A stretch of DNA of 45,340 nt from a virus (lineage: Duplodnaviria > Heunggongvirae > Uroviricota > Caudoviricetes): the IMG/VR virus record IMGVR_UViG_2537561977_000033; one strand, 5' to 3'. Below the pieces are notes generated by a model, which saw only the letters and a list, made by a program, of their open reading frames with translations, did no database searches and was not told the DNA's origin. Shown in pieces: positions 1 to 16,695 of the stretch; positions within the stretch are counted from its first letter, which is position 1; the number at the start of each line of letters is the position of its first letter. The translations under genes were made by a program, and so were the position numbers.

Positions 1-1284
1 TTACAGACTTCTGGAAGGTTGCGCAGCTCTTACAACACGCGGTTGATCTTCCGCAGCGTCTTCCAGCGCACTTAAATCACGGTCTTTCACCTCTGGCATT
101 TTCAGCGCAGAGATTAAACCAATTACTGAATATGCCATGATCATAATGGCGATCGGATACCAGGATTCCGTCATGGTGCAGAAAATACCCGCCAGGATAG
201 GACCAAAACCGGAAGCGATAAGACCACCAATTTCTTTAGAAATAGCCATCCGGGTAAAGCGGTTTTTACAGCCGAACATTTCTGCCATGGTAATGTTTTC
301 CAGAGCAAATAATCCCAGCACCGCACAGTTATGAATCACAATCAGTGCAACCATAATGGTGCTCGGGGCATAGCTTTTATCTACAATGATAGAAAGCATT
401 GGCCATGCCAGCACAATCGCGGAGGTATTCATAATAATATACGGGATCCGGCGACCAATTTTATCGGATAACCAACCAAGGAACGGAATGGTCATAAAGC
501 CGAGAATCGAACTAATCATCAATGCATCTGTTGGAATTGCTTTGTTAAACAATAACGTCTGCACTAAATAGCCTGCAAGGAAAGTCTGAATTAACCCGGA
601 GTTACCCGCCTGACCAAAACGCAGCCCTGTTGCCAGCCAGAAGGATTTGCTCTGGAACATGCTACCAGCAGGTGCAGGTTTTGCTGTGGGTTGGTTGCTG
701 TCATTAACCTTCTCAAAGACCGGGCTTTCTTTCAGATTCATACGTAACCAGATAGCAAAGACCATCACGACAACGCTCGCCAGGAACGGTATACGCCATC
801 CCCACGCCAGCAGTTCCTCTTTACTGAGAATGAAGAACATAAAGGCCCAGATTGCCGTTGCGCTCAAGGTTCCGCAGTTAGTTCCCATAGCTACAAATGA
901 GGAGATAATTCCGCGCTTACCTTTTGGTGCATATTCCGCCAGCATCGTACCGGCACCGGAAATTTCCGCACCTGCACCCAACCCCTGAATAATACGCAGC
1001 GTCACCAGCAAGATGGGGGCAAAAACACCAATCTGTGCATAGGTCGGTAACACACCAATTAAGGTGGTACAGATCCCCATCATGGTGATGGTAATAAAGA
1101 GCACTTTTTTACGCCCTATTCTGTCGCCCATTTTGCCGAAAATAAATGCTCCGACAATACGCGCCACATAACCCTCACCGTAGGTTCCCATTGCCAAAAT
1201 TAACGCCATTGCCGTTGATGATTCAGGAAAAAATATTTCATGAAACACTAACGCTGCGCCGAGCGAATATAACTGGAAATCCAT
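1..1284 (-). CDS. ydfJ: MFS-family transporter, 427 aa, probably N-terminally shortened
   Basis: Long minus-strand ORF with multiple hydrophobic segments and MFS loop motif GKMGDRIGRKK only ~50 aa from the start; matches my memory of E. coli YdfJ. Stop codon at 1-3. Confidence 0.75.
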   Translation of the reverse strand: MDFQLYSLGAALVFHEIFFPESSTAMALILAMGTYGEGYVARIVGAFIFGKMGDRIGRKKVLFITITMMGICTTLIGVLPTYAQIGVFAPILLVTLRIIQGLGAGAEISGAGTMLAEYAPKGKRGIISSFVAMGTNCGTLSATAIWAFMFFILSKEELLAWGWRIPFLASVVVMVFAIWLRMNLKESPVFEKVNDSNQPTAKPAPAGSMFQSKSFWLATGLRFGQAGNSGLIQTFLAGYLVQTLLFNKAIPTDALMISSILGFMTIPFLGWLSDKIGRRIPYIIMNTSAIVLAWPMLSIIVDKSYAPSTIMVALIVIHNCAVLGLFALENITMAEMFGCKNRFTRMAISKEIGGLIASGFGPILAGIFCTMTESWYPIAIMIMAYSVIGLISALKMPEVKDRDLSALEDAAEDQPRVVRAAQPSRSL

Positions 1285-1887
1285 AATTCACAGGTGTTTT
1301 TTCCCATCCTGTGGTTTCCTTGGCGTTTTCTAGGTTTTTTCAGATAGTTGCATTTTTTAAAAAGCATCCTAAGTTCGATCTCAGTGTCTATCTGGGGCCT
1401 ATTTCTGTCCCATATATGCCCCAAAAAAACTCCCCAACAGATAAGTAGCTTTTTCATGGATTTATGCGTAAAATCAAGAACGGCTGGAAATCATTCAATA
1501 CTCACACTATCGAAAAATTTACCAGCCAACCGCAGCACGTTCTTGCATAAGGCGTGTCTGCGGTTTTTCAACTATTCAGATACATCACTCCCATCACATT
1601 CATTCCTCCGCATCAAAGGCATATAGGCTATATCACCTTGATATTTTTCTTTTTCAGATAAAAACTGTTATCTATGTATACTTTTAAACCCAATCCGTGT
1701 AGAGTCTCTGCATAAGATAGTTTGCAGTTGCCGCTTCAGCTTGCGCCATAAATCGCCTGATTTTTGCTGCCACCTGTTAGCATTCCTGTATACCTGAAAC
1801 GACAATGTTTATCTACGAACTTTAAGAACACCCAAGATAAAAATTGTCAACTATATCATATATAACACATTACTAATTCGAGGCTAT

Positions 1888-2001
1888 ATGAACAGCATAC
1901 TGATAATCACATCTCTCCTTATCATATTCAGCATTTTTAGTCATGCCCTAATAAAATTAGGGATTGGCATATCCAATAACCCAGACAAAACCGATGTATA
2001 A
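1888..2001 (+). CDS. small hydrophobic peptide ORF, 37 aa ([37 protein letters not shown])
   Basis: ATG preceded by GAGG 5 nt upstream; single predicted TM helix; not in the supplied ORF track (too short). Speculative. Confidence 0.25.
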
Positions 2002-2069
2002 GTCAACATATCCTGAATCAGACATACAATATCGCAATGAAAATCAATAATATTTTAAGGAATATCTTC

Positions 2070-2303
2070 ATGAAATCAAAAGACACCCTAAAGTGGTTCC
2101 CTGCGCAGCTTCCTGAAGTAAGAATTATCCTAGGGGATGCTGTAGTGGAAGTAGCAAAACAGGGAAGACCTATCAATACCAGAACATTGCTTGATTACAT
2201 TGAAGGAAACATAAAGAAAAAATCATGGCTGGATAACAAAGAATTATTACAAACAGCGATATCAGTTCTTAAAGACAACCAAAATTTAAATGGTAAAATG
2301 TAA
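2070..2303 (+). CDS. ydfK: YdfK/YnaE-family small prophage protein, 77 aa from the internal Met
   Basis: ORF 2037-2303; AAGGAA Shine-Dalgarno precedes the ATG at 2070 (MKSKDTLKWFPAQLPEV...); recalled similarity to K-12 YdfK/YnaE. Confidence 0.55.
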   Translation: MKSKDTLKWFPAQLPEVRIILGDAVVEVAKQGRPINTRTLLDYIEGNIKKKSWLDNKELLQTAISVLKDNQNLNGKM

Positions 2304-2591
2304 TATAATAAACTTACTTTTTTATCATTTTTCCACTTTAACAACATTTTGCTCCACTTTTCCACGACCAAACAACTTGAAATCTGGTTAAAATAACACG
2401 CAACACTATTCTTCTTCCTTGAGTCCGCCCGGAACTCGAAAAACAAACCGAGTTAAAGCCATTTTTCACAAAATCGATTTTGGGTTTCACCAAAATTACG
2501 GGGTTGCATACGCATTCGTTTATTTTCGAACGTGTAGGTAATGCTGCCAACTTACTGATTTAGTGTATGATGGTGATTTTAAGGTGCTTGC

Positions 2592-2867
2592 GTGGCTTCC
2601 ATTTCCATCAGATGTCCTTCCTGCTCCGCTACTGAAGGCGTGGTGCGTAACGGCAAAAGCACTGCCGGACATCAGCGCTATCTCTGCTCTCATTGCCGTA
2701 AAACATGGCAACTACAGTTCACTTACACCGCCTCTCAGCCCGGTACGCACCAGAAAATCATTGATATGGCCATGAATGGCGTCGGATGTCGCGCCAGTGC
2801 ACGCATTATGGGCGTTGGCCTCAACACGGTTTTACGTCACTTAAAAAACTCAGGCCGCAGTCGGTAA
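2592..2867 (+). CDS. insA: IS1 InsA, 91 aa
   Basis: [43 protein letters not shown]... matches IS1 InsA from memory. Confidence 0.85.
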
Positions 2868-3289
2868 CCTCGCGCATACAACCGGGCAGTGATGTGATTG
2901 TCTGCGCTGAAATGGACGAACAGTGGGGCTACGTCGGTGCTAAATCACGTCAGCGCTGGCTGTTTTACGCGTATGACAGGATACGGAGGACGGTTGTGGC
3001 GCACGTCTTCGGTGAACGCACTCTGGCCACACTGGAGCGTCTTCTGAGCCTGCTGTCGGCCTTTGAGGTCGTGGTATGGATGACGGATGGCTGGCCGCTG
3101 TATGAATCACGCCTGAAGGGAAAGCTGCACGTTATCAGCAAGCGTTACACTCAGCGCATTGAGCGACATAATCTGAATCTGAGACAACATCTGGCAAGGC
3201 TGGGACGGAAGTCACTGTCGTTCTCAAAATCGGTGGAGCTGCATGACAAGGTCATCGGGCATTATCTGAACATAAAACACTATCAGTAA
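2786..3289 (+). CDS. insB: IS1 InsB reading frame, 167 aa (normally made as InsAB' by frameshifting)
   Basis: [16 protein letters not shown]...[13 protein letters not shown]... matches IS1 InsB; overlaps insA in another frame. Confidence 0.85.
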
Positions 3290-3395
3290 GTTGGAGTCAT
3301 TACCAACGTGTACATACAAATATGCACAAAAATAATCATAATTATTTTCTGAGATGCATTATGATATGAACACCAATTTCGTATAGAGTCTCACT

Positions 3396-3986
3396 ATGTC
3401 TCGAATTTTTGCTTACTGTCGGATATCAACGCTGGATCAGACCACCGAAAATCAACGCCGGGAAATCGAAAGTGCAGGTTTTAAAATCAAACCTCAGCAA
3501 ATAATCGAAGAACACATTAGCGGCTCAGCAGCAACCAGTGAGCGTCCTGGTTTTAACCGGTTGCTTGCTCGCCTGAAATGTGGTGATCAATTGATTGTGA
3601 CAAAACTGGATCGCCTTGGTTGTAATGCAATGGATATCAGGAAAACAGTGGAACAACTGACCGAAACAGGTATCAGAGTGCATTGCTTAGCATTGGGGGG
3701 CATTGACCTGACCAGTCCAACAGGAAAAATGATGATGCAAGTAATTTCAGCAGTCGCTGAATTTGAACGAGACCTTTTACTTGAACGCACTCATTCCGGG
3801 ATAGTAAGAGCCCGCGGCGCAGGGAAACGTTTTGGTCGACCACCTGTGTTAAATGAAGAACAGAAACAGGCGGTATTCGAACGAATTAAGTCAGGTGTAA
3901 GTATAAGTGCCATTGCCCGGGAATTCAAAACCTCGCGGCAAACCATTTTAAGAGCCAAAGCAAAACTTCAGACACCTGACATATAA
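3396..3986 (+). CDS. pin: Pin/Gin/Hin-family serine DNA invertase, 196 aa
   Basis: [20 protein letters not shown]... with the catalytic Ser in the YCRIS motif and a C-terminal HTH; matches Pin of E. coli cryptic prophages. Confidence 0.85.
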
Positions 3987-4082
3987 AAATAATCTCGGTG
4001 TGAGATGCTTTACGTCTTCCAAGCCCCCTTCCTTGCCGTAAATGGAAAGATACATCTAATTATAGAATTTATATGTTTTACC

Positions 4083-4658
4083 CTACGGCAGTGCTGGCCA
4101 TTCAATATCCTGTGCAGTTGACGTATCAACACGGTTCAGCAATACCCGATACTTTTTCCATGCTTCCAGCAACGAGATTTCTTCCTCCGTTGCAATTTCC
4201 AGATCTGCAGCATCCTGAAGCGGCGCAATATGCTCACTGGCTACCTGCATCAGGTTGTTTTTTGTTTCTTCCGCCTCCCGGATCCGGAACAGTTTTTCTG
4301 CTTCCGTATCCTTCACCCAGGCTGTGCCGTTCCACTTCTGAAACTCCCCTTCCGGCGATAACCAGGTAACATTTTCCGGTAACGGACCGAGTTCAGAAAT
4401 AAATAACGCGTCGCCGGAAGCCACGTCATAAACCGTTTTACCCCGATGATCTTCAACGAGATGCCACGATGACTCATCACTGTTGAAAACAGCCACGAAG
4501 CCAGCCGGAATATCTGGCGGTGCAATATCGGTACTGTTTGCTGGCAGACCTGTATGAGGCGGAATATATGCATCACCTTCACCAATAAATTCATTAGTTC
4601 CGGCCAGCAGATTATAAATTTTTATGGTCCGTGGTTGTTCACTCATTCTGAATGCCAT
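4083..4658 (-). CDS. tfa: tail fiber assembly protein, 191 aa
   Basis: Immediately downstream of the fiber gene with start/stop overlap at 4656-4660; sequence matches remembered TfaQ/lambda Tfa. Confidence 0.8.
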
Positions 4659-6313
4659 TATGCAAGCCTCACAATATAGTTAAATGCGATGTTTTTGACG
4701 GTGTTTTCCGCGTTACCAGCAGCGTTAACGGTGATGGTGTGTCCATGTGAACCAATCGCAACGGAGTGCGTATGAGCACCAATACCGACAGTATGTGCAT
4801 GTGCGCCTGCGCTTGCAGCAGTACCGGACAGCGAGTGGGTATGAGCACCATCTGATGATGTCTTCCCTGCATTACGAGTCTGGCCACTACCGCTTGTTGT
4901 GCTCATAATCCCCGCGCTTAGATTTGAAATCGCGGTATAACCATTAGGGAAAATGCTCGTGTTCGTGCCACCAAATGCACCGGAACTCTTGTGTTGGTGC
5001 GCACCGGCACTATTTGCGGTCCCGCTAATACTATGGGTATGCGCCCCGGTGTTATTCGTGGATTTGGTTCCGTAATCAAACGACGATGTGGTTTTCGTCC
5101 CCAAATCCGTACTGGATGCGCTGGCGCTGTGGGTGTGCGATTTAATGCCGTCCTGTTCCTGAGTTAATACGGCCCGACCACTGGCGGGCTTGCCCTTAAT
5201 CGTCCAGCCACGCATATCAGGGATCACGCCTGACGGATAAGCAACTGCAAGTTTCGGGTATGCAGATTTGTCAAAAGTCTGCCCCTGCATCAGGGCATAA
5301 CCAGACGGAACGGTATCTGATGGCCACGGGATTGGTGCACCGACTGGATAAAACTCTGCAGGAGGATGAGCCGAGGTGTAAAGCTGCGCCCACGGCGACC
5401 AGTTTGCGTCGGTCGTATCCCGTCGTGAACGAATAAATGCCGGAGCATGAGCACCGCTTGTACCACTCCAGCCGATGAGTAACTCACCTTCGCCAACGGC
5501 TGTCATCCCTTTCAGGTGAATGATATTTCCATACGCTGTTGGATATCCGTTGTTATACACCTCGTATAACTCAAGACCTGCTGCCCCCTGCGTATTGTCT
5601 GTCAGCGCGGTTACCCGACCTTTTGAAGCCAGATTAACTGATGATACTGCTGTTCCACCTGACGGTAACGCCCCGATCTCTGATGCCGTTGGCTTATTTC
5701 TGGAGTTATAGTCCCTTCGCCAGCCAGGTGAATAATCTGTTCCGTGATTAATATAGGTAAACTGGGCGTTAGTTGTTCCACCACCAGTGGAGGTGGTCGG
5801 TGTGGTAATGCGGATCGTCATCGCTGACTTTATCCCCATTACTTCAATGACAGCTCCGGCGAGATGAATATTACCGCAGTCAGTATCAGTAATGATTTTA
5901 TTATTGCCATAAGACCAGGACCCCTTGCACATCCAGTAGGGATGGTTAAATGCTCCCTGAGAATCCAGCCACTCGATAAACTGTGCAGTCGTCCAGTTTC
6001 CTGTTGTTGTGCTTACTGACCCACCGAAGGCACGGCAGGCACCAATATTTTTCGTAAAGGTATCTTTGCCAGGGATATCCGCACCGTTCTGATCTTTCTG
6101 CAGACGTTTCTCAGCATTGTCATTGGCTGCTTTTACTGCCTTTGGCGTTGCCGCCAGCGTTTCAGACGTGCTGTTGGTCGCGCTGCTTAACTGGATTATC
6201 CCTTTGTGCTGTCGTTGCATCCTGTGCGGTGTATTTCCCGTTAGCCAGGTCATACGCGGCCTTAACGGCTTTTGGCGTTGCCGCCTGTGACTCGGAAGTG
6301 CTGTTGGTCGCAC
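4658..6313 (-). CDS. stf: side tail fiber, C-terminal distal part; frame differs from the upstream stf part, real translation start unclear
   Basis: C-terminus ...[40 protein letters not shown] matches lambda Stf; carries the conserved box [26 protein letters not shown] near its N-terminus; first ~35 codons look like out-of-frame read-through. Confidence 0.7.
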
Positions 6314-6335
6314 TACTGAGCTGGACTATCCCCTT
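6141..6335. repeat. two direct copies (~64 bp each, ~130 bp apart) of the conserved tail-fiber recombination box
   Basis: 6141-6204 and 6271-6335 align with about 15 mismatches and one 1-nt length difference; both encode ...[11 protein letters not shown]...ATPKAVKAA in different frames. Confidence 0.8.
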
Positions 6336-7736
6336 TTTCGTCGTGCTCGCATCCTCAAGCGCCACGGCGGATGCAATATCCTCTGCCCGTTTTGCCGCTG
6401 TCTCGGCGCGCGTTGCCGCGGTTTCTGCCGTACTTTTGCTCTGTGCTGCCGCTGTCGCACTGCCAGCAGCCTCTGTCGCCTTCGTGGATGCTGTCGTGGC
6501 GCTGCCCTTCGCTGCTGACGCCTGTCTGGTCGCCTCATCTTTTGAAGCTGACGCCGATGATGCCGATGAAGCCGCCGAACTGGCGGACGATGCGGCAGCC
6601 GTTTTTGAGGATTCTGCGCTGGTTTCCGACGCTTTCGCGTTCGTCTCGGATGTCTTCGCTGCGGAAGCAGACCTCGCTGCTGCACTGGCCTGTTCAGTGG
6701 CTTCGCCAGCCTTCGTTGTGGCTGTTGAAGCAGACGAGGCGGCACTTTCTGCCGACTTTCCGGCAGCGGTGGCACTGGCTGAGGCCTGCCCGGCACTTGT
6801 TGACGCGGTACTGGCAGATGATGCAGCCGCTGTTTTTGAGCCTGCCGCAGCTGAGGCACTCTGTCCCGCTGCCGTTTCAGAAGACCTGGCGTTCGTCTCG
6901 GACGTCTTTGCCGCCTTCGCGGAATTTCCTGCCGCCGTTGCCGAGGAAGCGGCACTACTGGCGCTTGATGATGCGTTCGTTTCTGATGATTTCGCTGCCT
7001 CTTTTGAGGCCGCCGCATCCCGGGCTGAGGTGGCAGCTTCTGACGCCTTTGTGGTCGCTGCGGATGCAGAAGTGGCTGCAGATTTTTGTGACGCTGCCGC
7101 ATTCGTTTCTGACGTTTTCGCCGCACCGGCACTGGTAGCTGCCGCGCTTTTTGAGGACTCTGCAGCGGCAGCACTTTTTGATGCTTCAGTAGCCTTTGTT
7201 GATGCCGTTCCTGCGCTGGAAGACGCTGACTGAGCCGACGTCGCGGCCTGCCCGGCTGATGTGCTGGCTGCACGTGCTGAGCCTGCAGCATCAGTCGCAT
7301 GGGTTGCCGCCTCACGGGCTGATGTGCCGGCATCGCCGGCTGACTTCTTCGCGGCTGCCGTGTTCTGTGCCACCGCGGACGCGTTACGCGCCACCTCTTC
7401 CACCATCAGCTCAAAACGGCGCAGTGCCTCCGGACGGGCATCATCCTCCGTCATGGCACCGAGAAAATCATTCAGCGTACCGGGTCGGGAATCTTCATAC
7501 ACGGTGATGGTCCCGGCATGTGACGGCGGGAATCCTTCCACCAACAGAATAACGCTGTACTGACCGTACTCAACGTCCATACTGTAACGCCCGGCTTCAT
7601 CCGGATTTTCTGAGGCCAGCGTGTTCACCACCACCGTGGTGCTGTTACGTTTTGCTTTCAGCTGGATTGTGCAGTTCTGTACCGGTTTTCCTGTGCCGTC
7701 TTTCAGTACACCTGAAATCTTTACTGCCATATTCAC
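6162..7736 (-). CDS. stf: side tail fiber, N-terminal proximal part, 524 aa, Ala/Ser-rich repeats
   Basis: N-terminus [37 protein letters not shown]... matches lambda Stf; ends shortly after the conserved box, inside the second copy of the repeat. Confidence 0.75.
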
Positions 7737-7794: not shown

Positions 7795-8394
7795 TCAGAA
7801 TTTATAACCGACACCCACGATGAAACTGTTGGTACGCCAGTCACCGCTGCCGGAGCCTTCATAAGCGACGTCAACGGCCACGGATTCGGTCGGGTTAAAC
7901 TGCACGCCAGCTCCCCACGCCAGAGACGTGTTGCTGTGGCGACCGTCATCACTTCCGGTCAGCACATCGTGCGTTTTCCCCTTGTTGTCAGTTACGCGGA
8001 TATAATCTCCGGAGAAAGTCGAAACACGGCTGTAAGCCATACCCGCCATCGCATACGCGCTGAACCATTCATTCACGCGCACAGACGGCCCCGCCATCAC
8101 GCTGAACCAGCGGTTACGCACGGAATCTTCATGCCAGCGGGTATCGCTGTAATGCGTTTTTTGCTCATCTTCAGCGTTGGCATAACTGAATGACGTAATC
8201 AGCCCCAGCGTGTCCGTAAACTCATAACGGTATTTCACGTTAATCCCGTTCAGATTATCGCTGCCGGGAGCGTTCGTACGGGCATGAAGATACCCTGCGC
8301 TCAGTGTGGCCTGCTGCTCAGACGCCCATGCAGGCGCACCGAATACGGCCAGACAAATGGCTGCGGACAAAATGGCGGCATAAAGTTTACGCAT
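7795..8394 (-). CDS. lom: Lom outer-membrane protein (Ail/Lom family), 199 aa, with signal peptide
   Basis: [24 protein letters not shown]... ends in a beta-barrel motif ...GVGYKF; lambda Lom position between J and stf. Confidence 0.8.
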
Positions 8395-8460: not shown

Positions 8461-11400
8461 TCAGCTGATACTGATGCCTGCGGTGGCTTTCTTCATCACC
8501 ACAACCAGCAAATCGCTGATACTTGCTGTGGGATACCAGTCATTTACCAGCCATGCTGACACCGAAAACTCCAGCGTCATGTGGCCGTGACCAGCTGGCA
8601 TATCAATAACACCACTGTAAATCAGCGTATTATCCAGCGCGGTACGGTTATAAATTTCAGCACCATTTTTCTTCACTATCAGGCGGCATGACGAATAAAT
8701 ATCGTTATTCTCCCGCTCATGTTTAGCGCCGCAGAATGCCACCGCTGGAATAACAATTTGCCTGTCAAAAGGCTGATCGTCATAAATCCTGACGGTAATG
8801 GTCCCTGATGGCCACCGCTCCGGTGCCCGGGAGTCCCGCGGGAAAGCCTTACCCACTGTTTTGACAATATCGCCTTCAATCTGATTGGCTGACAGTTTCC
8901 CCTTAATCTGACAGTTCTCATTAATCGTGACGTTGTTGAGCGTCCCGGAGTTCGCGTTCACGTTACCGCTGATATCGGCATTTTTCGCCGTCAGCCGTCC
9001 GCCAGGTGTCAGGGAAAATGCCGGAGGATTACCGCCGCTGGTAATGGTGGGGGCCGTCAGGCGTTTCAGGAACACGTCGTTCATGAATATCTGATCGCCC
9101 TGACCAACAAACATCGGTTTTGTGTTGCCATTCGCAGGATTAACCATCGCAATCCTGTCCGCCGCCAGCAGCACCTGACTCTGCATGCCGTCAGGGGTGT
9201 TCTCAATACCGGCACCAATACCCGCGATATAAAGGCGTCCGTCCTGCATCTGCTGCAGCTTCACAGCCCACATGCTGTTCAGGTTATTATTTGTATCAAC
9301 CTGAACCTTCTGTATCTGCTGAATTGCCGCACTCTGGTCTTCCAGTTTCTTATTGACGGTCTGCGTGATTTCATTGCTGACATCCGTAATGGACGTCCTG
9401 ATTTCAGCCAGGTCAGGCGCAAGCTGACCGTTATCAATCTGCGTCCACAGCTCCTGAGCCAGATGGGTTTTCCCTATCTCGCCTTTGAAAAAATCCAGAT
9501 AGCCGGATGCATCATCACTCGGCTGACCAACAGCCTCCACGAATGCCGATTTGCCAACGGTGTTCACACTGCGAACGTAAAAATAATAATCATGGCCCGG
9601 CCTGATATTGATACTGGCGGCTATCCAGTACAGCGCCGTGCCAAGATAGCGGGCTGTGGTTTCAACCTGCCTGATATCGGTAATCCGCTTTTCCGAGAAC
9701 CAGAACTCAAACTGTACCGTCGGGTCATAAACGGCAAGATGCGGCGTGGCGGTTATCTGAAAATAGCCCGGCGTCAGCTCAATCCGCGACGGCGCTGCCG
9801 GTGCGGCAATCCGGAACGATACCGACGCCGGATCGCCCTGCTGCCCCCACGCATTTACTGCCCGGACTGTCAGCCTGTAGTTCCCCAGCGCCAGTTGTGT
9901 GAAGCGGTAAGTGGTTTCCGTCGTCCGGGCCGTGCTGACCAGCCGCTCACTGCCGTCATCCGCTGTTACGGTCAGACGGAGCAGGAAGCTCACGCCCTTC
10001 ACCACCTTCGGCGTGTCCCAGCGCGCCAGCACCTGATATTCCCCGCTGTCTGCGGTGACTTCGGCAGTCAGGTGCTGCACCGCTGGCGGCGTGACACCAT
10101 TCACCGTGCCGCTCTGGTCGCCGTCAAAGTGCGCCCCGTTATCCACGATGGCCTCTTTTTCCGGTACATGCTGCACGGCGGTGATGGCATACGTGCCGTC
10201 ATCGTTCTCACGGATACTCACGCAGCGGAACAGGCGCTGGCGCAGCGTCGGCAGCTTCAGCCCCCATACGCTGTATCCGGCAACGCCGTCAGGAACACGG
10301 CTCACTTTTACCTTCACGCCGTCGGTGACGGACTGGACCTCCACGCTGACCGGATTGCCTCTTCCGTCAACCAGGCTTATCAGCGTGGTACCGGAGGATG
10401 GCAGCGTGATTTCACGGTCGAGCGTCAGCGTCCGGGTCTGGCTGTTCACCGCCAGCACGCGCCCGCCGGTACTGATACCGGCATAGTCATCATCGCAGAT
10501 TTCAATGACATCGCCCGGTACATGGCGAAGCCCTTCAGCACCCACGCTGAAGTCCACGGTCTGCGTTTCCAGCAGTTCCGTTTTAATCAGCCACAGCCCG
10601 GCGCGGTGTGCCTGCCCCCGGCTGGTACAGCCAAAGGCATCCATCTTCGTGACGTTACGACCGTAACGGGCAATGGCCTGCGTATCTTCAACAAGCTCTG
10701 TCGCCGTCTCCCAGCCGTTGTTCGGGTCAATCCAGTTCACCTCAACGGCATTATGGCGGTCCTTCAGGGCGCTGAAGCTGTAGCGGAACGGCGCGCCATC
10801 ATCCGGCATCACCACATTACTGCGGTTATAGGTCCACGCCTTATCCGACGGTCGGTCCTGCACGAACGTCAGCGTCTGCCCGTTCCATACCGGCATACAG
10901 CGCATCGCCGAGCAGAAATCACTGAGCACATCCCACGCCTTACGCTGTGTGGTCAGGTACGCATTACAGGTGATGCGCGGCTCCGTGCCGCCAAAGCCGT
11001 CCGGCACTGACTGGTCGCAGTACTGGCCGATGACATACAGCGCCCATTTATCCACATCCGTCGCACCAAGACGTTTCCCCATGCCGTAGCGCGGATGGGT
11101 CAGCATATCCCACAGACACCAGGCCATGTTGTTGCTGTATGCCGGTTTAAACGTTCCGTCCCAGATACCGCTGTATTGCCGCGTCTGCGGGTTATAGTTC
11201 GACGGCACCTGCAGAATGCGCCCGCGAAGATGATAATTACGACTCACCTGCTGGCTGCCGAACTGCTCCGAGTCCACCTGCACGCCGACCAGTGCCGTGT
11301 TCGGGTAGCCCTGTTTCACATCGATGATTTCGGTGTATGACGACCAGAGCGTTTTGTTCTGCAGCTGGTCTGTGGTGCTGTCCGGCGTCATCCTGCGCAT

Positions 11401-11940
11401 CCGGATACTGAACGGGCGCGGCGGCAGGTTATCCACCACCACAGAGGCCAGGTACTGCGAGGTGGTTTTGCCTTTAATGGTGATGTCTTTTTCCGTCACC
11501 CAGCCACCGTTACGTTGTATCTGAACCAGCAGGCGGACTTCCGATGGATTCCTGTCCCCCTTTGAGGTGGTTTCCACCAGTGCCTGCACACCGAAGGTAA
11601 AGCGCAGACGGTCGATGTTTGCAGACGTGATGGTCCGGGTGATCGGCGTGTCGTATTTCACTTCCGTACCGAGCACCGTCTCGGATCCGGAGGATTCAAA
11701 TCCCTCCGGCGGTGTCTGCTCCTGCTCACCGGCCCGGAACACCACCGTGACACCGGATATGTTGGTATTCCCCTCAGTGTCCAGCACCGGCGTACTGTTC
11801 AGCAGCACGCTTTTTAAGCCATCCACCGGACCTTCAACCGGCCCTTCGCTGATGGCATCGATCACACTCAGCAACTGCGTGGACTTCAGGTTGTCCTTCG
11901 CTTCGCGCGGGGTATGCCCCTTACTGCTGCCTTTACCCAT
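8461..11940 (-). CDS. J: tail tip / host specificity protein J, 1159 aa, with a C-terminal domain unlike lambda J
   Basis: First ~900 aa near-identical to remembered lambda J ([24 protein letters not shown]...); last ~250 aa diverge. Confidence 0.9.
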
Positions 11941-11999: not shown

Positions 12000-12671
12000 T
12001 CAGCGACCAATCACCACAACCTGACCACCGTCCCCTTCGTCTGCCGTGCTGATCTCCTGAGAAACCACACGTGACCCCACGCGCATTTCACCGTACAGAA
12101 CGGGCAGAACATTGCCCTGGGCAACCATGTTATCCAGTGAGGAGAAATAGGTGTTTTGTTTGCCGTTATCCGTTGTCTGTGTACGGGGAGTTCTGGTTTT
12201 CGGTGCCAGCATCTGCGCCACACCACCGAGCACCATACTGGCACCGAGAGAAAACAGGATGCCGGTCATACCACCGGCCCCAATGGCTGCCCCCCATGCT
12301 GCAAGGGTGGCTCCGGCGGTAAAGAATGATCCGGCAATGGCGGCAGCTCCCAGGACAATCTGGAATACGCCCCCTGACTTGGCTCCGGCGACTCTGGGAA
12401 CAATATGAATCACAGCGCCGTCAGGCAGAGTCTCATGTAACTGCGCCGTTAACCCGGACGTGCTGACGTCCCGCCCGGCAATCCGTACCTGATACCAGCC
12501 GTCGCTCAGTTTCTGACGAAACGCCGGGAGCTGTGTGGCCAGTGCGCGGATGGCTTCAGCCCCCGTTTTCACACGAAGGTCGATGCGGCGACCAAATCGT
12601 TGTAAATCCCCGTAAAGGCAGATGCGCGCCATGCCCGGTGACGCCAGAGGGAGTGTGTGCGTCGCTGCCAT
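12000..12671 (-). CDS. I: tail assembly protein I, 223 aa
   Basis: MAATHTLPLASPGMARICLYGDLQRFGRRIDLRV... matches lambda I. Confidence 0.85.
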   Translation of the reverse strand: MAATHTLPLASPGMARICLYGDLQRFGRRIDLRVKTGAEAIRALATQLPAFRQKLSDGWYQVRIAGRDVSTSGLTAQLHETLPDGAVIHIVPRVAGAKSGGVFQIVLGAAAIAGSFFTAGATLAAWGAAIGAGGMTGILFSLGASMVLGGVAQMLAPKTRTPRTQTTDNGKQNTYFSSLDNMVAQGNVLPVLYGEMRVGSRVVSQEISTADEGDGGQVVVIGR

Positions 12672-14015: not shown

Positions 14016-14344
14016 CAGTTCACCACCTGTTTAAACTCTGCGCTGAACTCAACACGCAACATACTGACCTGCGACGACCATTTTGCGCAGATCACCTTTA
14101 TCTGCCTGTAACCATAAGGCGGCGTCCACAGAAAGGCCTTCCAGCCCCCGTGCTCAGCCAGAAACGACTCCAGCGCCGTGGCCTCCTCACGGGAGACAGA
14201 CAGCGTCACGCTGTACGTTTTCAGGTCAGCGTTCAGCCCGGCAGGCGCACGCTGGGAATAGCCATCACCAAAGCGCACCTCCCTGACGGAAGGAGCCGAT
14301 GTCACATCCATCCCGGGTTTCACTTTCCAGCGGAAGGTTTTCAT
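14015..14344 (-). CDS. M: tail protein M, 109 aa
   Basis: MKTFRWKVKPGMDV...RVEFSAEFKQVVN matches lambda M. Confidence 0.85.
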   Translation of the reverse strand: MKTFRWKVKPGMDVTSAPSVREVRFGDGYSQRAPAGLNADLKTYSVTLSVSREEATALESFLAEHGGWKAFLWTPPYGYRQIKVICAKWSSQVSMLRVEFSAEFKQVVN

Positions 14345-15159
14345 CGTCCACCTCCGGAGAACAGACCACCATCGCGCATCTGTGCCTGGATTTCATCACG
14401 GGCACCCTTGCGGGCCATGTCATACACCGCCTTCATCATCTGTGGACCTGGCAGACCATTCGTACCGTCGTTCTGAATCACCACGTTGTTGTTCTGCTCA
14501 AACCTGATACCCTCTGAACGCCGCATTTGCGCCGGACTTCCGGTGCCACCGACATAACCGCCGGTGGCATAGCCGCGCATCAGCCGGTAGAGATTTCCCA
14601 CGCCAATCCGGCTGGTTGCCTCCTTCGTGAAGACAAATTCACCACGGTGAACAATCCCCGCTGGCTCATATTTGCCGCCGGTTCCCGTAAATCCTCCGGT
14701 TGCAAAATGGAATTTCGCCGCAGCTGCCTGAATGGCTGTACCGCCTGACGCTGATGCGCCGCCACCAACAGCCCCGCCAATGGCGCTGCCAATACTCCCG
14801 ACAATCCCCACCATTGCCTGCTTAAGCAGAATTTCTGTCATCATGGACAGCACGGAACGGGTGAAGCTGCGCCAGTTCTGCTCACTGCTGGTCAGCATCG
14901 CTGCCATATTCTGCGCAATACCATCAAAGGTCTGCGTGGCTGCACTTTTAACCTGCAACATACTGTCCGTGGCACTCTCTTTCCACTCGCTCCAGCCGGA
15001 CCTGAGGCCTGCCATCCAGCTCCCGCGAAGCAGGTCTTCAGCCGCCCAGGTCTTTTTCTGCTCTGACATGACGTTATTCAGCGCCAGAGGATTATCGCCA
15101 TACTGTTCCTTCAGGCGCTGTTCCGTGGCTTCCCGTTCTGCCTGCCGGTCAGTCAGCCC
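14341..15159 (-). pseudogene. H: tape measure protein H, C-terminal ~270 codons only; 5' end removed at the IS boundary
   Basis: Open frame runs without stops from the IS left end at 15159 down to the stop at 14341; the supplied ORF (first Met at 15069) covers part of it. Lambda H is about 850 aa. Confidence 0.8.
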
Positions 15160-16453
15160 CTGAGGAATCCCCAGAAAACAAGACAGGCATAGTGAGATGT
15201 GATCTAATTGATTGTGCTAACAATTTCAAGGAGATCACCACTATGCCTGCACGTTCATTATGCCAAAATTTCCTTAACAACATACTGGCCCCTTTGCATC
15301 TTTACCGTCAAAAATCACTGATTGACGCAACTAATGCTGTAATAAATGGCGCTTCCCTCACACTTACCAGTATCGGGCGTCATTTAACCGGTACGGCATC
15401 AGTTAAAAACAAAATAAAGCGGGTGGATCGACTGTTGGGGAATCGACATTTGCAAAATGAGGTTTCCACCATTTTTCAGCGAATTACCCAAAAGATTACG
15501 CGGGGAATGTCTCGTGTTGTGATACTCATTGACTGGAGTGCTTATCATGCCTCTCGTTTTCAGCTTTTGCGGGCAAGCCTGGCATGTGACGGGCGTTCTT
15601 TACCGTTGATGAGTTGTGTCGTTCCATCATCACAGACAGCGAATGCAGATGTACATGAGCGTTTTCTGGAATCGCTTGCTGAGTGCTTTTCCCCCGGGAC
15701 TGATGTCATTGTTATTACAGATGCCGGTTTTCAGGGGCGATGGTTCCAACAGCTCCGCTCCCGTGGCTGGACCTATATTTGCCGGGTACTGGGCAATCAT
15801 TATTACAATGTTGGTAATGGCTGGGAAAAGGTGTCGGACTCAGGCACAAAAGCATCAACGACAGCAATTTATTTAGGTGAAGGCCTGCTGGGTCGAGATA
15901 AAAATGCACAACATGAAGGGCATTTTTATCTTTATAAAAGTAAGCCTAAAGGTCGTAGATTTAAACGCTCGAAGGAAAGAGCAACCAGACCATCGGTGAC
16001 GGCTAAAGCTCGTACTGCCGGGAAATCACCATGGTTTATTTTCACAAACAGTACTGAGTTCTCGCCAAAACAGGTAATGAAATTATACAGCCGTAGAATG
16101 CAAATTGAGCAAAATTTCAGGGATGAAAAAAATCCTCGCTGGGGATTTGGACTACGGTTTGGTGCCAGTCATTCATCCGGGCGGGTCACGGTATTGAGTC
16201 TGATCGCAACATTAGCCAGTATCATTATGTGGTTAAGCGGTTTCAGCCTGGAAAACAAAGGGATACATCATAAATATCAGGCAAATACAGTGAAGCACAG
16301 GCGAGTCATCTCGTTATTAAAACTGGCGGAGAATGTGATTCGACATTCTCCACTCATACTAAACACACTGTCACTTGACGCAGGGCTGAAAGTTCTACAG
16401 CAACGGTATACCAATATGATAATGGTTTACTAAATTTTCTGGGGATCCCTCAG
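15160..16453 (+). mobile_element. IS4-family (IS10-like) insertion sequence, ~1.29 kb, no flanking direct repeat
   Basis: Terminal inverted repeats CTGAGGAATCCCCAGAAAA (15160-15178) and TTTTCTGGGGATCCCTCAG (16435-16453) resemble IS10 ends (CTGA.GATCCCC); flanking 9-mers differ (AGTCAGCCC vs GGCAAATCC). Confidence 0.8.
15192..16433 (+). CDS. IS4-family DDE transposase, 413 aa, IS10 transposase-like
   Basis: Motifs KRVDRLLGNRHLQNE, YKSKPKGRRFKRS, YSRRMQIEQNFRDEK and HKYQANTVKHRRV parallel remembered IS10 transposase; partial identity only. Confidence 0.85.
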   Translation: MRCDLIDCANNFKEITTMPARSLCQNFLNNILAPLHLYRQKSLIDATNAVINGASLTLTSIGRHLTGTASVKNKIKRVDRLLGNRHLQNEVSTIFQRITQKITRGMSRVVILIDWSAYHASRFQLLRASLACDGRSLPLMSCVVPSSQTANADVHERFLESLAECFSPGTDVIVITDAGFQGRWFQQLRSRGWTYICRVLGNHYYNVGNGWEKVSDSGTKASTTAIYLGEGLLGRDKNAQHEGHFYLYKSKPKGRRFKRSKERATRPSVTAKARTAGKSPWFIFTNSTEFSPKQVMKLYSRRMQIEQNFRDEKNPRWGFGLRFGASHSSGRVTVLSLIATLASIIMWLSGFSLENKGIHHKYQANTVKHRRVISLLKLAENVIRHSPLILNTLSLDAGLKVLQQRYTNMIMVY

Positions 16454-16695
16454 GGCAAATCCCCCCGGTTAACTTTGATTCTGGCCTGCGGATTTTTGAC
16501 CGTGGCCCTTTTCAGCCTGGCCCTTTCCTTTACCAGTTTCCGGCGTACCTTTGTCTCACGGGCAACCTGTGACGCAGACTGCGATATCGCGGATGAAGCA
16601 ACGCGGTTAATGGCCATTGCGGCGGCACCGGGCACCGCCGTTTTGCTGATACGGCTGAGGTTTTCAACGGCCTGCTCAAGACCTTTTATGGCCAT
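16454..16695 (-). pseudogene. Z: tail protein Z, N-terminal ~80 codons, truncated at the IS
   Basis: MAIKGLEQAVENLSRISKTAVPGAAAMAINRVASS...KVNRGDLP matches the lambda Z N-terminus; the frame runs into the IS right end. Confidence 0.7.

Follow-up and report, generated by a model that had tools for sequence, protein, structure and literature searches.

Gene J lies in a tail-defective Qin-locus prophage

The window, the whole 45,340-nucleotide stretch of DNA that was analysed (IMG/VR record IMGVR_UViG_2537561977_000033), carries gene J for the tip attachment or central tail fibre protein at 8461..11940 on the minus strand as an intact ORF of 1159 amino acids plus stop. J sits in a tail cluster with the order L-K-I-J-lom-stf-tfa, as in lambda and the ATCC 8739 prophage, and the gene order at the Qin locus is I-J-lom-stf-tfa-pin. 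Gene I was located at 12000-12671 (PF06805). Directly downstream of J is lom, which encodes an Ail/Lom outer-membrane protein (7795..8394, minus strand; PF06316 Ail_Lom, E = 5e-123). The side tail fibre gene stf (4658..7736, minus strand) is split by a 2-nt deletion near 6205 into ORFs at 6162..7736 and 4658..6313. The N-terminal piece matches PF08400, the C-terminal piece matches Phage_fiber_2 and Collar, and alignment with the single 1007-amino acid stf of ATCC 8739 shows the 2-nt gap in the window gene. The tail fibre assembly gene at 4083..4658 (minus strand; PF02413 Caudo_TAP) is tfaQ-like and corresponds to tfaQ in ATCC 8739.

An IS10-like (IS4-family) insertion sequence at 15158..16455 on the plus strand is bounded by 21-nt terminal inverted repeats (15158-15178 and 16435-16455) and encodes a DDE_Tnp_1 transposase (15192..16433). 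The element stands in for ~4.06 kb comprising the 3' end of Z, U, V, G, T, and the 5' two-thirds of H. A blastn comparison with the ATCC 8739 prophage record paired window position 15160 with 13689 and position 16453 with 9624. In the ATCC 8739 prophage the tail genes remain and stf is undivided, whereas the window prophage has an IS-mediated deletion and an stf frameshift. The window prophage, of E. coli, is tail-defective. Having lost the major tail, chaperone, and most tape-measure genes and carrying the frameshift in stf, it cannot deploy J on a virion of its own.

The possibility that J is decaying in this defective prophage was considered and ruled out because the ORF is intact and has a dN/dS of 0.09 relative to the ATCC 8739 orthologue. 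That orthologue (WP_000515744.1) occupies the same chromosomal locus; it shares 98% of residues with the window J overall and every residue (100%) of the receptor-binding domain (RBD). A protein identical to the window J is deposited at NCBI as EFZ55482.1, 'host specificity protein J' of E. coli LT-68. Six Pfam domains were matched in the order FNIII-A_GpJ (residues 86-207), Phage-tail_3 (330-498), Ig_J (610-714), Ig_J_second (716-818), Phage_Tail_Tip (872-1000), and Ig_GpJ_C (1029-1159), all scoring far over their cutoffs. The ordered gpJ architecture of hub, two FNIII/Ig domains, helical shaft, beta-prism fibre, and C-terminal RBD is present. The window J is an ordinary intact lambda-family gpJ.

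J is a mosaic relative to lambda gpJ

Lambda gpJ (NP_040600; PDB 8IYK, 8XCJ, and 8XCK), which binds LamB, shares gene position, domain order, and the PF12421 family with the window J. The two proteins align colinearly by BLASTP from the first to the last residue with 967 of 1159 residues identical (83%). The conserved backbone consists of the hub and FNIII/Ig domains in residues 1-805 (9526..11940, minus strand), as delimited by DNA and protein identity. Residues 1-800 are ~97% identical to lambda J (799/820 over the N-terminal part), and the DNA encoding residues 1-805 is 95-99% identical in 120-nt windows to lambda and phage 21 J alike. Divergence starts near residue 805. A sequence-only reading of the locus had J tracking lambda J over ~900 residues; the tracking is as close as proposed but ends earlier.

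Residues ~806-890 (9271..9525, minus strand; boundaries approximate) make up a phage-21-type shaft that was assigned by DNA identity and is presumably alpha-helical. The helical shaft domain takes its name from the lambda structure, where it spans residues 809-861 (PMC11101478). The window shaft is 28 residues longer than that of lambda and ~23% identical to it (18/77 over residues 821-897), with the lambda gaps opposite window residues ~836-866. The shaft DNA is 27-64% identical to lambda versus 96-97% identical to phage 21 J, and the phage 21 relationship extends over shaft plus upper fibre at 94-97% DNA identity. This shaft is a second, separate mosaic module that the sequence-only reading overlooked.

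Identity to lambda rises again in the central straight fibre, the beta-prism at residues ~891-1028 (8857..9270, minus strand; PF09327 Phage_Tail_Tip match). Residues 898-1033 are 71% identical to lambda and residues 921-1000 are ~84% identical, with 37 of 40 positions matching at 961-1000. Over a short patch at 8941-9060, DNA identity to ATCC 8739 falls to 87.5%, while on either side it is 100%. Residues 930-961 (9058..9153, minus strand) are the homologue of lambda J 902-933 at an alignment offset of +28. The lambda stretch, 32 residues long, is the trigger peptide of the HepS abortive-infection nuclease (PMC13043305). Window Q950 and F952 are conserved, aligning with lambda Q922 and F924, and PDB entry 9oik, 'J tail tip', was matched by the window stretch.

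The C-terminus belongs to the lambda RBD family

The interval singled out in the sequence-only reading, 8461-9250, spans 790 nt and is one base off frame; the codon-exact interval is 8464-9249. The ORF does end with the C-terminal sequence quoted there, and the extreme C-terminus is recognisably like that of lambda, which ends in ...SDVQVMVIKKQALGISVV. The statement that the last ~250 residues do not resemble lambda's LamB-binding C-terminus is refuted. The last 262 residues align with lambda without rearrangement at 149 of 262 identical positions (57%), and a phmmer search with them matched the lambda gpJ chains 8xcj/8iyk at E = 6e-90. Identity drops to 41% over the last 126-131 residues. The Ig-like RBD at residues 1029-1159 (8464..8856, minus strand) matches PF12421 Ig_GpJ_C ('Tip attachment protein J, C-terminal receptor binding domain') over positions 1-135 of the 135-position profile with E = 2.6e-37 and a score of 128.3 bits, where the cutoff is 26.2. 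Judged by its sequence, the window C-terminus is a diverged allele of lambda's Ig-like RBD family and not a foreign domain. The 57% and 41% colinear identities and the full-length PF12421 match indicate that one allele has replaced another inside a single domain family. The modular swap that had been proposed thus stands as an exchange of the receptor-binding end by recombination, but the module measures ~130-160 residues rather than 250.

The best solved-structure matches were A8 gpJ 713 (9wca/9wcb; E = 4e-112), followed by lambda gpJ (8xcj/8iyk; E ~1e-89). The entries 9wca and 9wcb are A8 gpJ without and with OmpC, and 8xck and 8xcj are a lambda gpJ pair, one with LamB and one without. By its description, 9wcb shows the open state in complex with EDL933 OmpC. 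A single-sequence AlphaFold2 model of residues 1001-1159 was all-beta and of low confidence (mean pLDDT 58.6). Its only significant Foldseek matches were 9wca, 9wcb, 8xck, and 8xcj (E 3e-12 to 8e-9, TM ~0.48), so that structure prediction, counted here as weak support, led back to A8 and lambda gpJ.

Divergence within the RBD is concentrated in four hypervariable, indel-bearing blocks (8518..8844, minus strand) identified by alignment to lambda. These blocks cover residues 1033-1044, 1071-1080, 1100-1106, and 1130-1141 and have 6/16, 2/10, 1/7, and 2/12 positions identical to lambda, respectively. The strands between them have 9-15 residues identical to lambda, and the conserved motifs FDRQ, KNG, and DMPxGxG alternate with the blocks. 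Natural J lineages are defined by indels at lambda residues 1012 and 1107 (PMC6646904), and these two sites fall at blocks 1 and 4. By analogy, we infer that the four blocks correspond to the receptor-contact loops L1-L4 described for lambda (PMC11101478). All four putative loops differ from those of lambda, and the window RBD, at 41% identity, has neither the lambda-type sequence nor its contact loops.

The closest receptor-tested relative depends on OmpC

RBD identities to the window J in a multiple alignment were 100% for ATCC 8739, 95% for Stx2a_WGPS2, 94% for PPompW_EH1992, and ~92% for gpJ 1A2, the last value resting on 127 readable positions of a sequence taken from a machine-read PDF with frameshifting errors. 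A frameshift-tolerant alignment found 113 of these 127 positions identical. More distant were phage 21 (64%), A8 (61%), 434 (44%), and lambda (41%). The window RBD is therefore of the 1A2 / O157-prophage sequence type. The engineered chimera gpJ 1A2 (Brodel et al. 2024, PMC11338833) belongs to the same RBD allele class, and its natural counterparts are the O157/O145 prophages PPompW_EH1992 (LC567832; RBD 98% identical to 1A2) and Stx2a_WGPS2 (NC_049941). Putative L1 and L3 are identical between the window RBD and this class. The window RBD differs from 1A2/PPompW by ~8 substitutions, three of them in putative L2 (ERENND versus EKEHTD) and one in putative L4 (VNDW versus VNNW). The body upstream of the RBD also differs, with lambda's own shaft in 1A2 and the phage-21 type in the window J.

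MG1655 cells lacking lamB and ompC received DNA from the 1A2 and A8 chimeras only if OmpC was supplied (PMC11338833). 1A2 accepts EDL933-type OmpC and many variants, but not the K-12 variant (PMC11338833; preprint 10.1101/2025.02.28.640725). The A8 gpJ chimera (PDB 9WCA, closed; 9WCB, open with EDL933 OmpC) and phage 21 / 4A7 J are of the same family as the window J. Their RBDs are 61-65% identical to that of the window, with an L2 longer by 5-6 residues and a shorter L1. A8 has a 29-residue stretch just upstream of the RBD that is identical to the window J, and its RBD is 80% identical to that of phage 21. A8 binds OmpC, whereas Phi21 is reported to be natively LamB-dependent, and a single J mutation adds OmpC (PMC11336670); the J of that Phi21 strain may not equal the phage 21 record compared here, OL657228. 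Phage 434 / ev099 J has the domain family and gene context of the window J, but its RBD shares only 43-44% of residues and has other indels in L1, L2, and L4. Its reported receptor is OmpC (PMC12502783). EHEC phage phi330, another OmpC user, has an RBD 35-40% identical to lambda and 434 by its authors' account.

Phage PhiR55_1 (PV340571) is 96% identical in DNA over the whole J gene and 95.8% identical in protein over the last 262 amino acids. PhiR55.1 makes plaques (PMC13190303), and thus the window allele class works in viable phages. A search of the available literature for receptor data on the natural allele carriers PhiR55_1, vB_EcoS-640R1, and PPompW_EH1992 found none, and the BASEL-completion paper and a 2026 receptor-prediction preprint had no content on lambda-type RBD alleles.

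The window allele class predominates in E. coli

Window-type RBD DNA was found in 3372 of 5426 complete E. coli genomes, and the window allele class is the commonest version of the J RBD in this set. Phage-21-type RBD DNA was present in 1176 genomes. Lambda-type RBD DNA, which has no megablast-level similarity to the window RBD, was present in 97, all at ≥99% identity. The lambda-type carriers are apparently often laboratory lysogens; among the genomes listed, 5 of 5 were laboratory strains.

Discussion

We consider it probable that the window J is an intact mosaic lambda-family gpJ that carries the dominant RBD class, most likely recognises OmpC as its porin, and persists as a recombination reservoir. 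The mosaic would consist of the conserved hub/FNIII backbone common to lambda and phage 21 (1-805), the phage-21-type longer helical shaft and upper fibre (about 806-960), and the C-terminal Ig-like RBD of the class dominant in E. coli prophages. It may have arisen by homologous recombination among lambdoid prophages through conserved flanks. By analogy with the lambda gpJ-LamB and A8 gpJ-OmpC complexes, the four distal loops of the trimeric RBD would enter the extracellular mouth of the trimeric porin. Porin binding would then spread the RBD bases, twist the beta-prism, flip the helical shaft, and bring about opening of the tail tip for DNA ejection. Since J cannot be deployed by its own prophage, the gene may be kept as a reservoir for recombination.

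The receptor of the window J, unlike that of lambda, is probably not LamB on sequence grounds. OmpC rather than LamB is the most likely porin because chimera gpJ 1A2, the tested allele nearest to the window J, needs OmpC but not LamB. The different primary receptor proposed in the sequence-only reading is likely on this comparison, a case made by homology.

Alternatively, the RBD could bind OmpF or another outer-membrane protein, or a subset of OmpC variants unlike that of 1A2. We regard this as unlikely. Four of the ~8 substitutions relative to 1A2/PPompW fall in putative L2 and L4, 1A2 itself tells EDL933 from K-12 OmpC, and in lambda and Phi21 few mutations suffice to change the porin used, Phi21 moving from LamB to OmpC to OmpF by one or a few changes in J (PMC11336670). 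The RBD is nevertheless 92-95% identical to the O157/O145 prophage alleles with unchanged L1 and L3 blocks, and no data suggest a non-OmpC receptor for this class. Retargeting of the Qin-locus allele to other OmpC variants or another porin by its loop substitutions is likewise a minor possibility. If true, the allele would be a natural specificity variant useful for mapping how gpJ loops read porin loops.

It is still less probable that the RBD binds LamB as lambda does and that its divergence reflects neutral or immune-evasion drift. The domain is a homologue of the RBD with which lambda binds LamB, and divergence alone is no proof of a receptor change because Phi21, at 64% RBD identity, reportedly uses LamB natively (PMC11336670). 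The closer relative 1A2, however, works in lamB-deleted cells and needs OmpC, and the window RBD departs from lambda in each of its four putative contact loops. A non-homologous ~250-residue domain grafted onto a lambda J body, which the sharp falls in identity past ~805 and again past ~1000 might suggest, is almost certainly wrong given the 57% alignment of the last 262 residues, the PF12421 and PF09327 matches, and the lambda gpJ structure match. OmpC recognition by an RBD of the lambda family remains the preferred reading.

The finding is ordinary and matters little as a discovery because it is already known. That natural J homologues recombine in their specificity region has been on record since 2018 (PMC6646904), OmpC-targeted delivery vectors already exploit the 1A2 allele class (PMC11338833), and the exact protein is deposited and annotated. 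The genome counts give it its context. With the lambda type in 97 of 5426 genomes and the window class in 3372, lambda's LamB-binding tip is a rare allele and being unlike lambda is the norm for natural J proteins. Receptor prediction for such prophages should follow the RBD allele class and not the name 'J'.

The J gene

Tail-tip protein J (1159 aa, ending ...[33 protein letters not shown]) is encoded on the minus strand by an ORF of 3480 nt (8461..11940 in the ORF list). Its neighbours follow the lambda order, with gene I on one side and lom-stf-tfa on the other. Pfam identified the whole lambda gpJ domain series in J (FNIII-A_GpJ, Phage-tail_3, Ig_J, Ig_J_second, Phage_Tail_Tip, and Ig_GpJ_C). 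The interval under study, 8461-9250, is the 3' end of this ORF; it lies one base off the reading frame, and the codon-exact interval is 8464-9249 (J residues 898-1159). J is intact, and changes relative to the copy in the orthologous prophage of strain ATCC 8739 are overwhelmingly synonymous (dN/dS 0.09). The protein is already deposited and annotated. The exact sequence is EFZ55482.1 in NCBI ('host specificity protein J [Escherichia coli LT-68]'), which belongs to a 90%-identity cluster of 34,633 members.

Comparison of J with lambda J

BLASTP aligned J with lambda J (1132 aa) over its full length in one colinear stretch, with 967 of 1159 residues identical. The sequence-only reading had the first ~900 residues tracking lambda J closely. 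This holds for the first ~800, with 799 of 820 residues identical over 1-820 (DNA 95-99% identical to both lambda and phage 21), but not beyond, where only 18/77 residues match at 821-897 and J has 28 extra residues. Identity is 97/136 over residues 898-1033, including 37/40 at 961-1000, and 52/126 (41%) over residues 1034-1159. The last ~250 residues had been described as unlike the lambda C terminus, and the data contradict this: the interval is 57% identical to lambda (149/262 over residues 898-1159), phmmer matched it to lambda gpJ chains 8xcj and 8iyk (E about 1e-89), and the last 131 residues matched PF12421, 'Tip attachment protein J, C-terminal receptor binding domain', across the full profile (E = 2.6e-37). 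The difference from lambda is therefore one of allele, not of domain kind.

Sequence comparison presents J as a three-part mosaic, with domains named according to lambda cryo-EM work (PMC11101478). Residues 1-805, the hub and FNIII backbone, are shared by lambda and phage 21. Residues ~806-960, the alpha-helical shaft and upper beta-prism, are of the phage-21 type (DNA 94-97% identical to OL657228 versus 27-72% to lambda). The remainder, from about residue 1000 on, has DNA 100% identical to ATCC 8739 J, against only 52-58% for lambda and 57-73% for phage 21. A patch at 8941-9060 (residues ~961-1000) is 87.5% identical to ATCC 8739 J between 100% flanks, which suggests that it is probably a small gene-conversion tract. 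Over this patch J looks like the alleles of PPompW and phage 21 (GGRL...GNVN against DGKL...GSVN).

The helical shaft (9271-9525, residues ~806-890) is of the phage-21 type and 28 residues longer than that of lambda. It forms a second mosaic module, an independent one that had been lumped with the receptor-binding end. Lambda J 902-933, the 32-residue peptide by which the Gifsy-1 abortive-infection nuclease HepS is activated (PMC13043305), has its homologue in another stretch of the protein, at 9058-9153 (J residues 930-961). The window J is predicted to trigger HepS, because key residues Q950 and F952 are conserved (lambda Q922 and F924).

Receptor-binding domain and candidate receptor

The receptor-binding domain (RBD) has four hypervariable, indel-bearing blocks at residues 1033-1044, 1071-1080, 1100-1106, and 1130-1141, interleaved with the conserved motifs FDRQ, KNG, and DMPxGxG. 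Every second loop of a beta-sandwich lies on one face, and we thus infer that the four blocks are L1-L4, the distal loops that in lambda are inserted into LamB. The first and fourth blocks line up with lambda residues 1012 and 1107, indel sites that define natural J lineages according to Maddamsetti et al. (PMC6646904).

The top PDB match of the interval was not lambda but 'A8 gpJ 713' (E = 4e-112), with entries 9wca (closed) and 9wcb (open with EDL933 OmpC). Brodel et al. constructed the chimeras A8 and 1A2 by fitting lambda gpJ with C termini from natural E. coli phage J variants, so as to switch lambda particles from LamB to OmpC (PMC11338833). Both delivered DNA into MG1655 lacking lamB and ompC only if OmpC was supplied, and jointly they cover 21/23 OmpC variants; 1A2 used the EDL933 OmpC variant and not the K-12 variant (PMC11338833; preprint 10.1101/2025.02.28.640725).

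The window RBD is 100% identical to that of the ATCC 8739 prophage, 95% to Stx2a_WGPS2, and 94% to PPompW_EH1992. Next are 1A2 at 92%, the first in this order with an assigned receptor (OmpC, experimental), phage 21 and 4A7 at 64-65% (LamB natively reported for Phi21), A8 at 61% (OmpC, experimental, structure 9wcb), 434 and ev099 at 43-44% (OmpC reported for 434), and lambda at 41% (LamB, experimental, structure 8xcj). The 1A2 DNA was taken from machine-read PDF text of the PMC11338833 supplement, which had dropped bases; a frameshift-tolerant alignment with the window J gave 113 identities at 127 readable RBD positions. 1A2 is 98% identical to PPompW_EH1992, and the window RBD differs from the two by about 8 substitutions, three in putative L2 and one in L4. 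Phi21 is reported to use LamB natively and to have gained OmpC through one J mutation (PMC11336670), and the RBDs of A8, which uses OmpC, and phage 21 are 80% identical. These three points call for caution in naming a receptor, and porin choice is changeable within this RBD family.

The closest functionally tested relative, 1A2, is OmpC-dependent and LamB-independent. This supports the proposal that J has a different primary receptor and puts a name to it, with OmpC a reasonably probable receptor of the window J. The earlier interpretation is supported in part: the primary receptor is likely one other than LamB, probably OmpC, but by way of a swapped homologous allele and not an acquired foreign domain.

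Homology with 8XCJ/8XCK and 9WCA/9WCB suggests a mode of action following that of lambda (PMC11101478). Each protomer of the RBD trimer would dock its four loops in the trimeric porin. The RBD bases would move apart, new hydrogen bonds would make the beta-prism more compact and twist it, the helical shaft would flip, the FNIII strings would come apart, and the tail tip would open. The longer window shaft would make a longer closed fibre.

Distribution of RBD types and prophage context

The last 390 nt of J were compared with 5426 complete E. coli genomes by megablast, counting matches at 80% coverage or more. The window-type RBD was found in 3372 genomes (with a median of 2 copies in each; 103 replicon records have a best match of ≥99% identity), the phage-21 type in 1176, and the lambda type in 97. 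Every lambda-type match was ≥99% identical, and the five genomes among the matches listed are all laboratory strains. The LamB-binding tip of lambda is the exception and the window allele is the norm. Viable phages bear the window-type allele: PhiR55_1, whose last 262 aa are 95.8% identical, forms plaques on E. coli C (PMC13190303).

The window is a lambdoid prophage in the Qin locus (truncated ydfJ, ydfK, pinQ, and tfaQ at 1-4658), orthologous to that of ATCC 8739 (NC_010468 2284838-2325227), and three lesions mark its degradation. An IS10-like IS4-family element (15158-16455; 21-nt terminal inverted repeats, junctions 15160 and 16453, 413-aa DDE transposase at 15192..16433) stands in for about 4.06 kb of tail genes found in the orthologue. 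Missing are U, V, G and T, together with the 3' end of Z and the 5' two-thirds of tape-measure H, of which a 242-aa C-terminal remnant is left (14341-15069). At 2537-3304, between the ydfK side and pinQ, 768 bp are inserted with respect to ATCC 8739; the insert encodes an IS1 transposase (PF03400, E = 1e-74) and so is an IS1 copy. Compared with the undivided ATCC 8739 stf (1007 aa), the side tail fibre gene stf (4658-7736) lacks 2 nt near 6205, and this deletion breaks it into two overlapping ORFs of 524 and 551 aa. The deletion could be a sequencing error; the split is reminiscent of the stf frameshift in laboratory lambda PaPa. The prophage is unable to build a tail, and in this genome J can matter only by recombining with another lambdoid phage or by complementing one.
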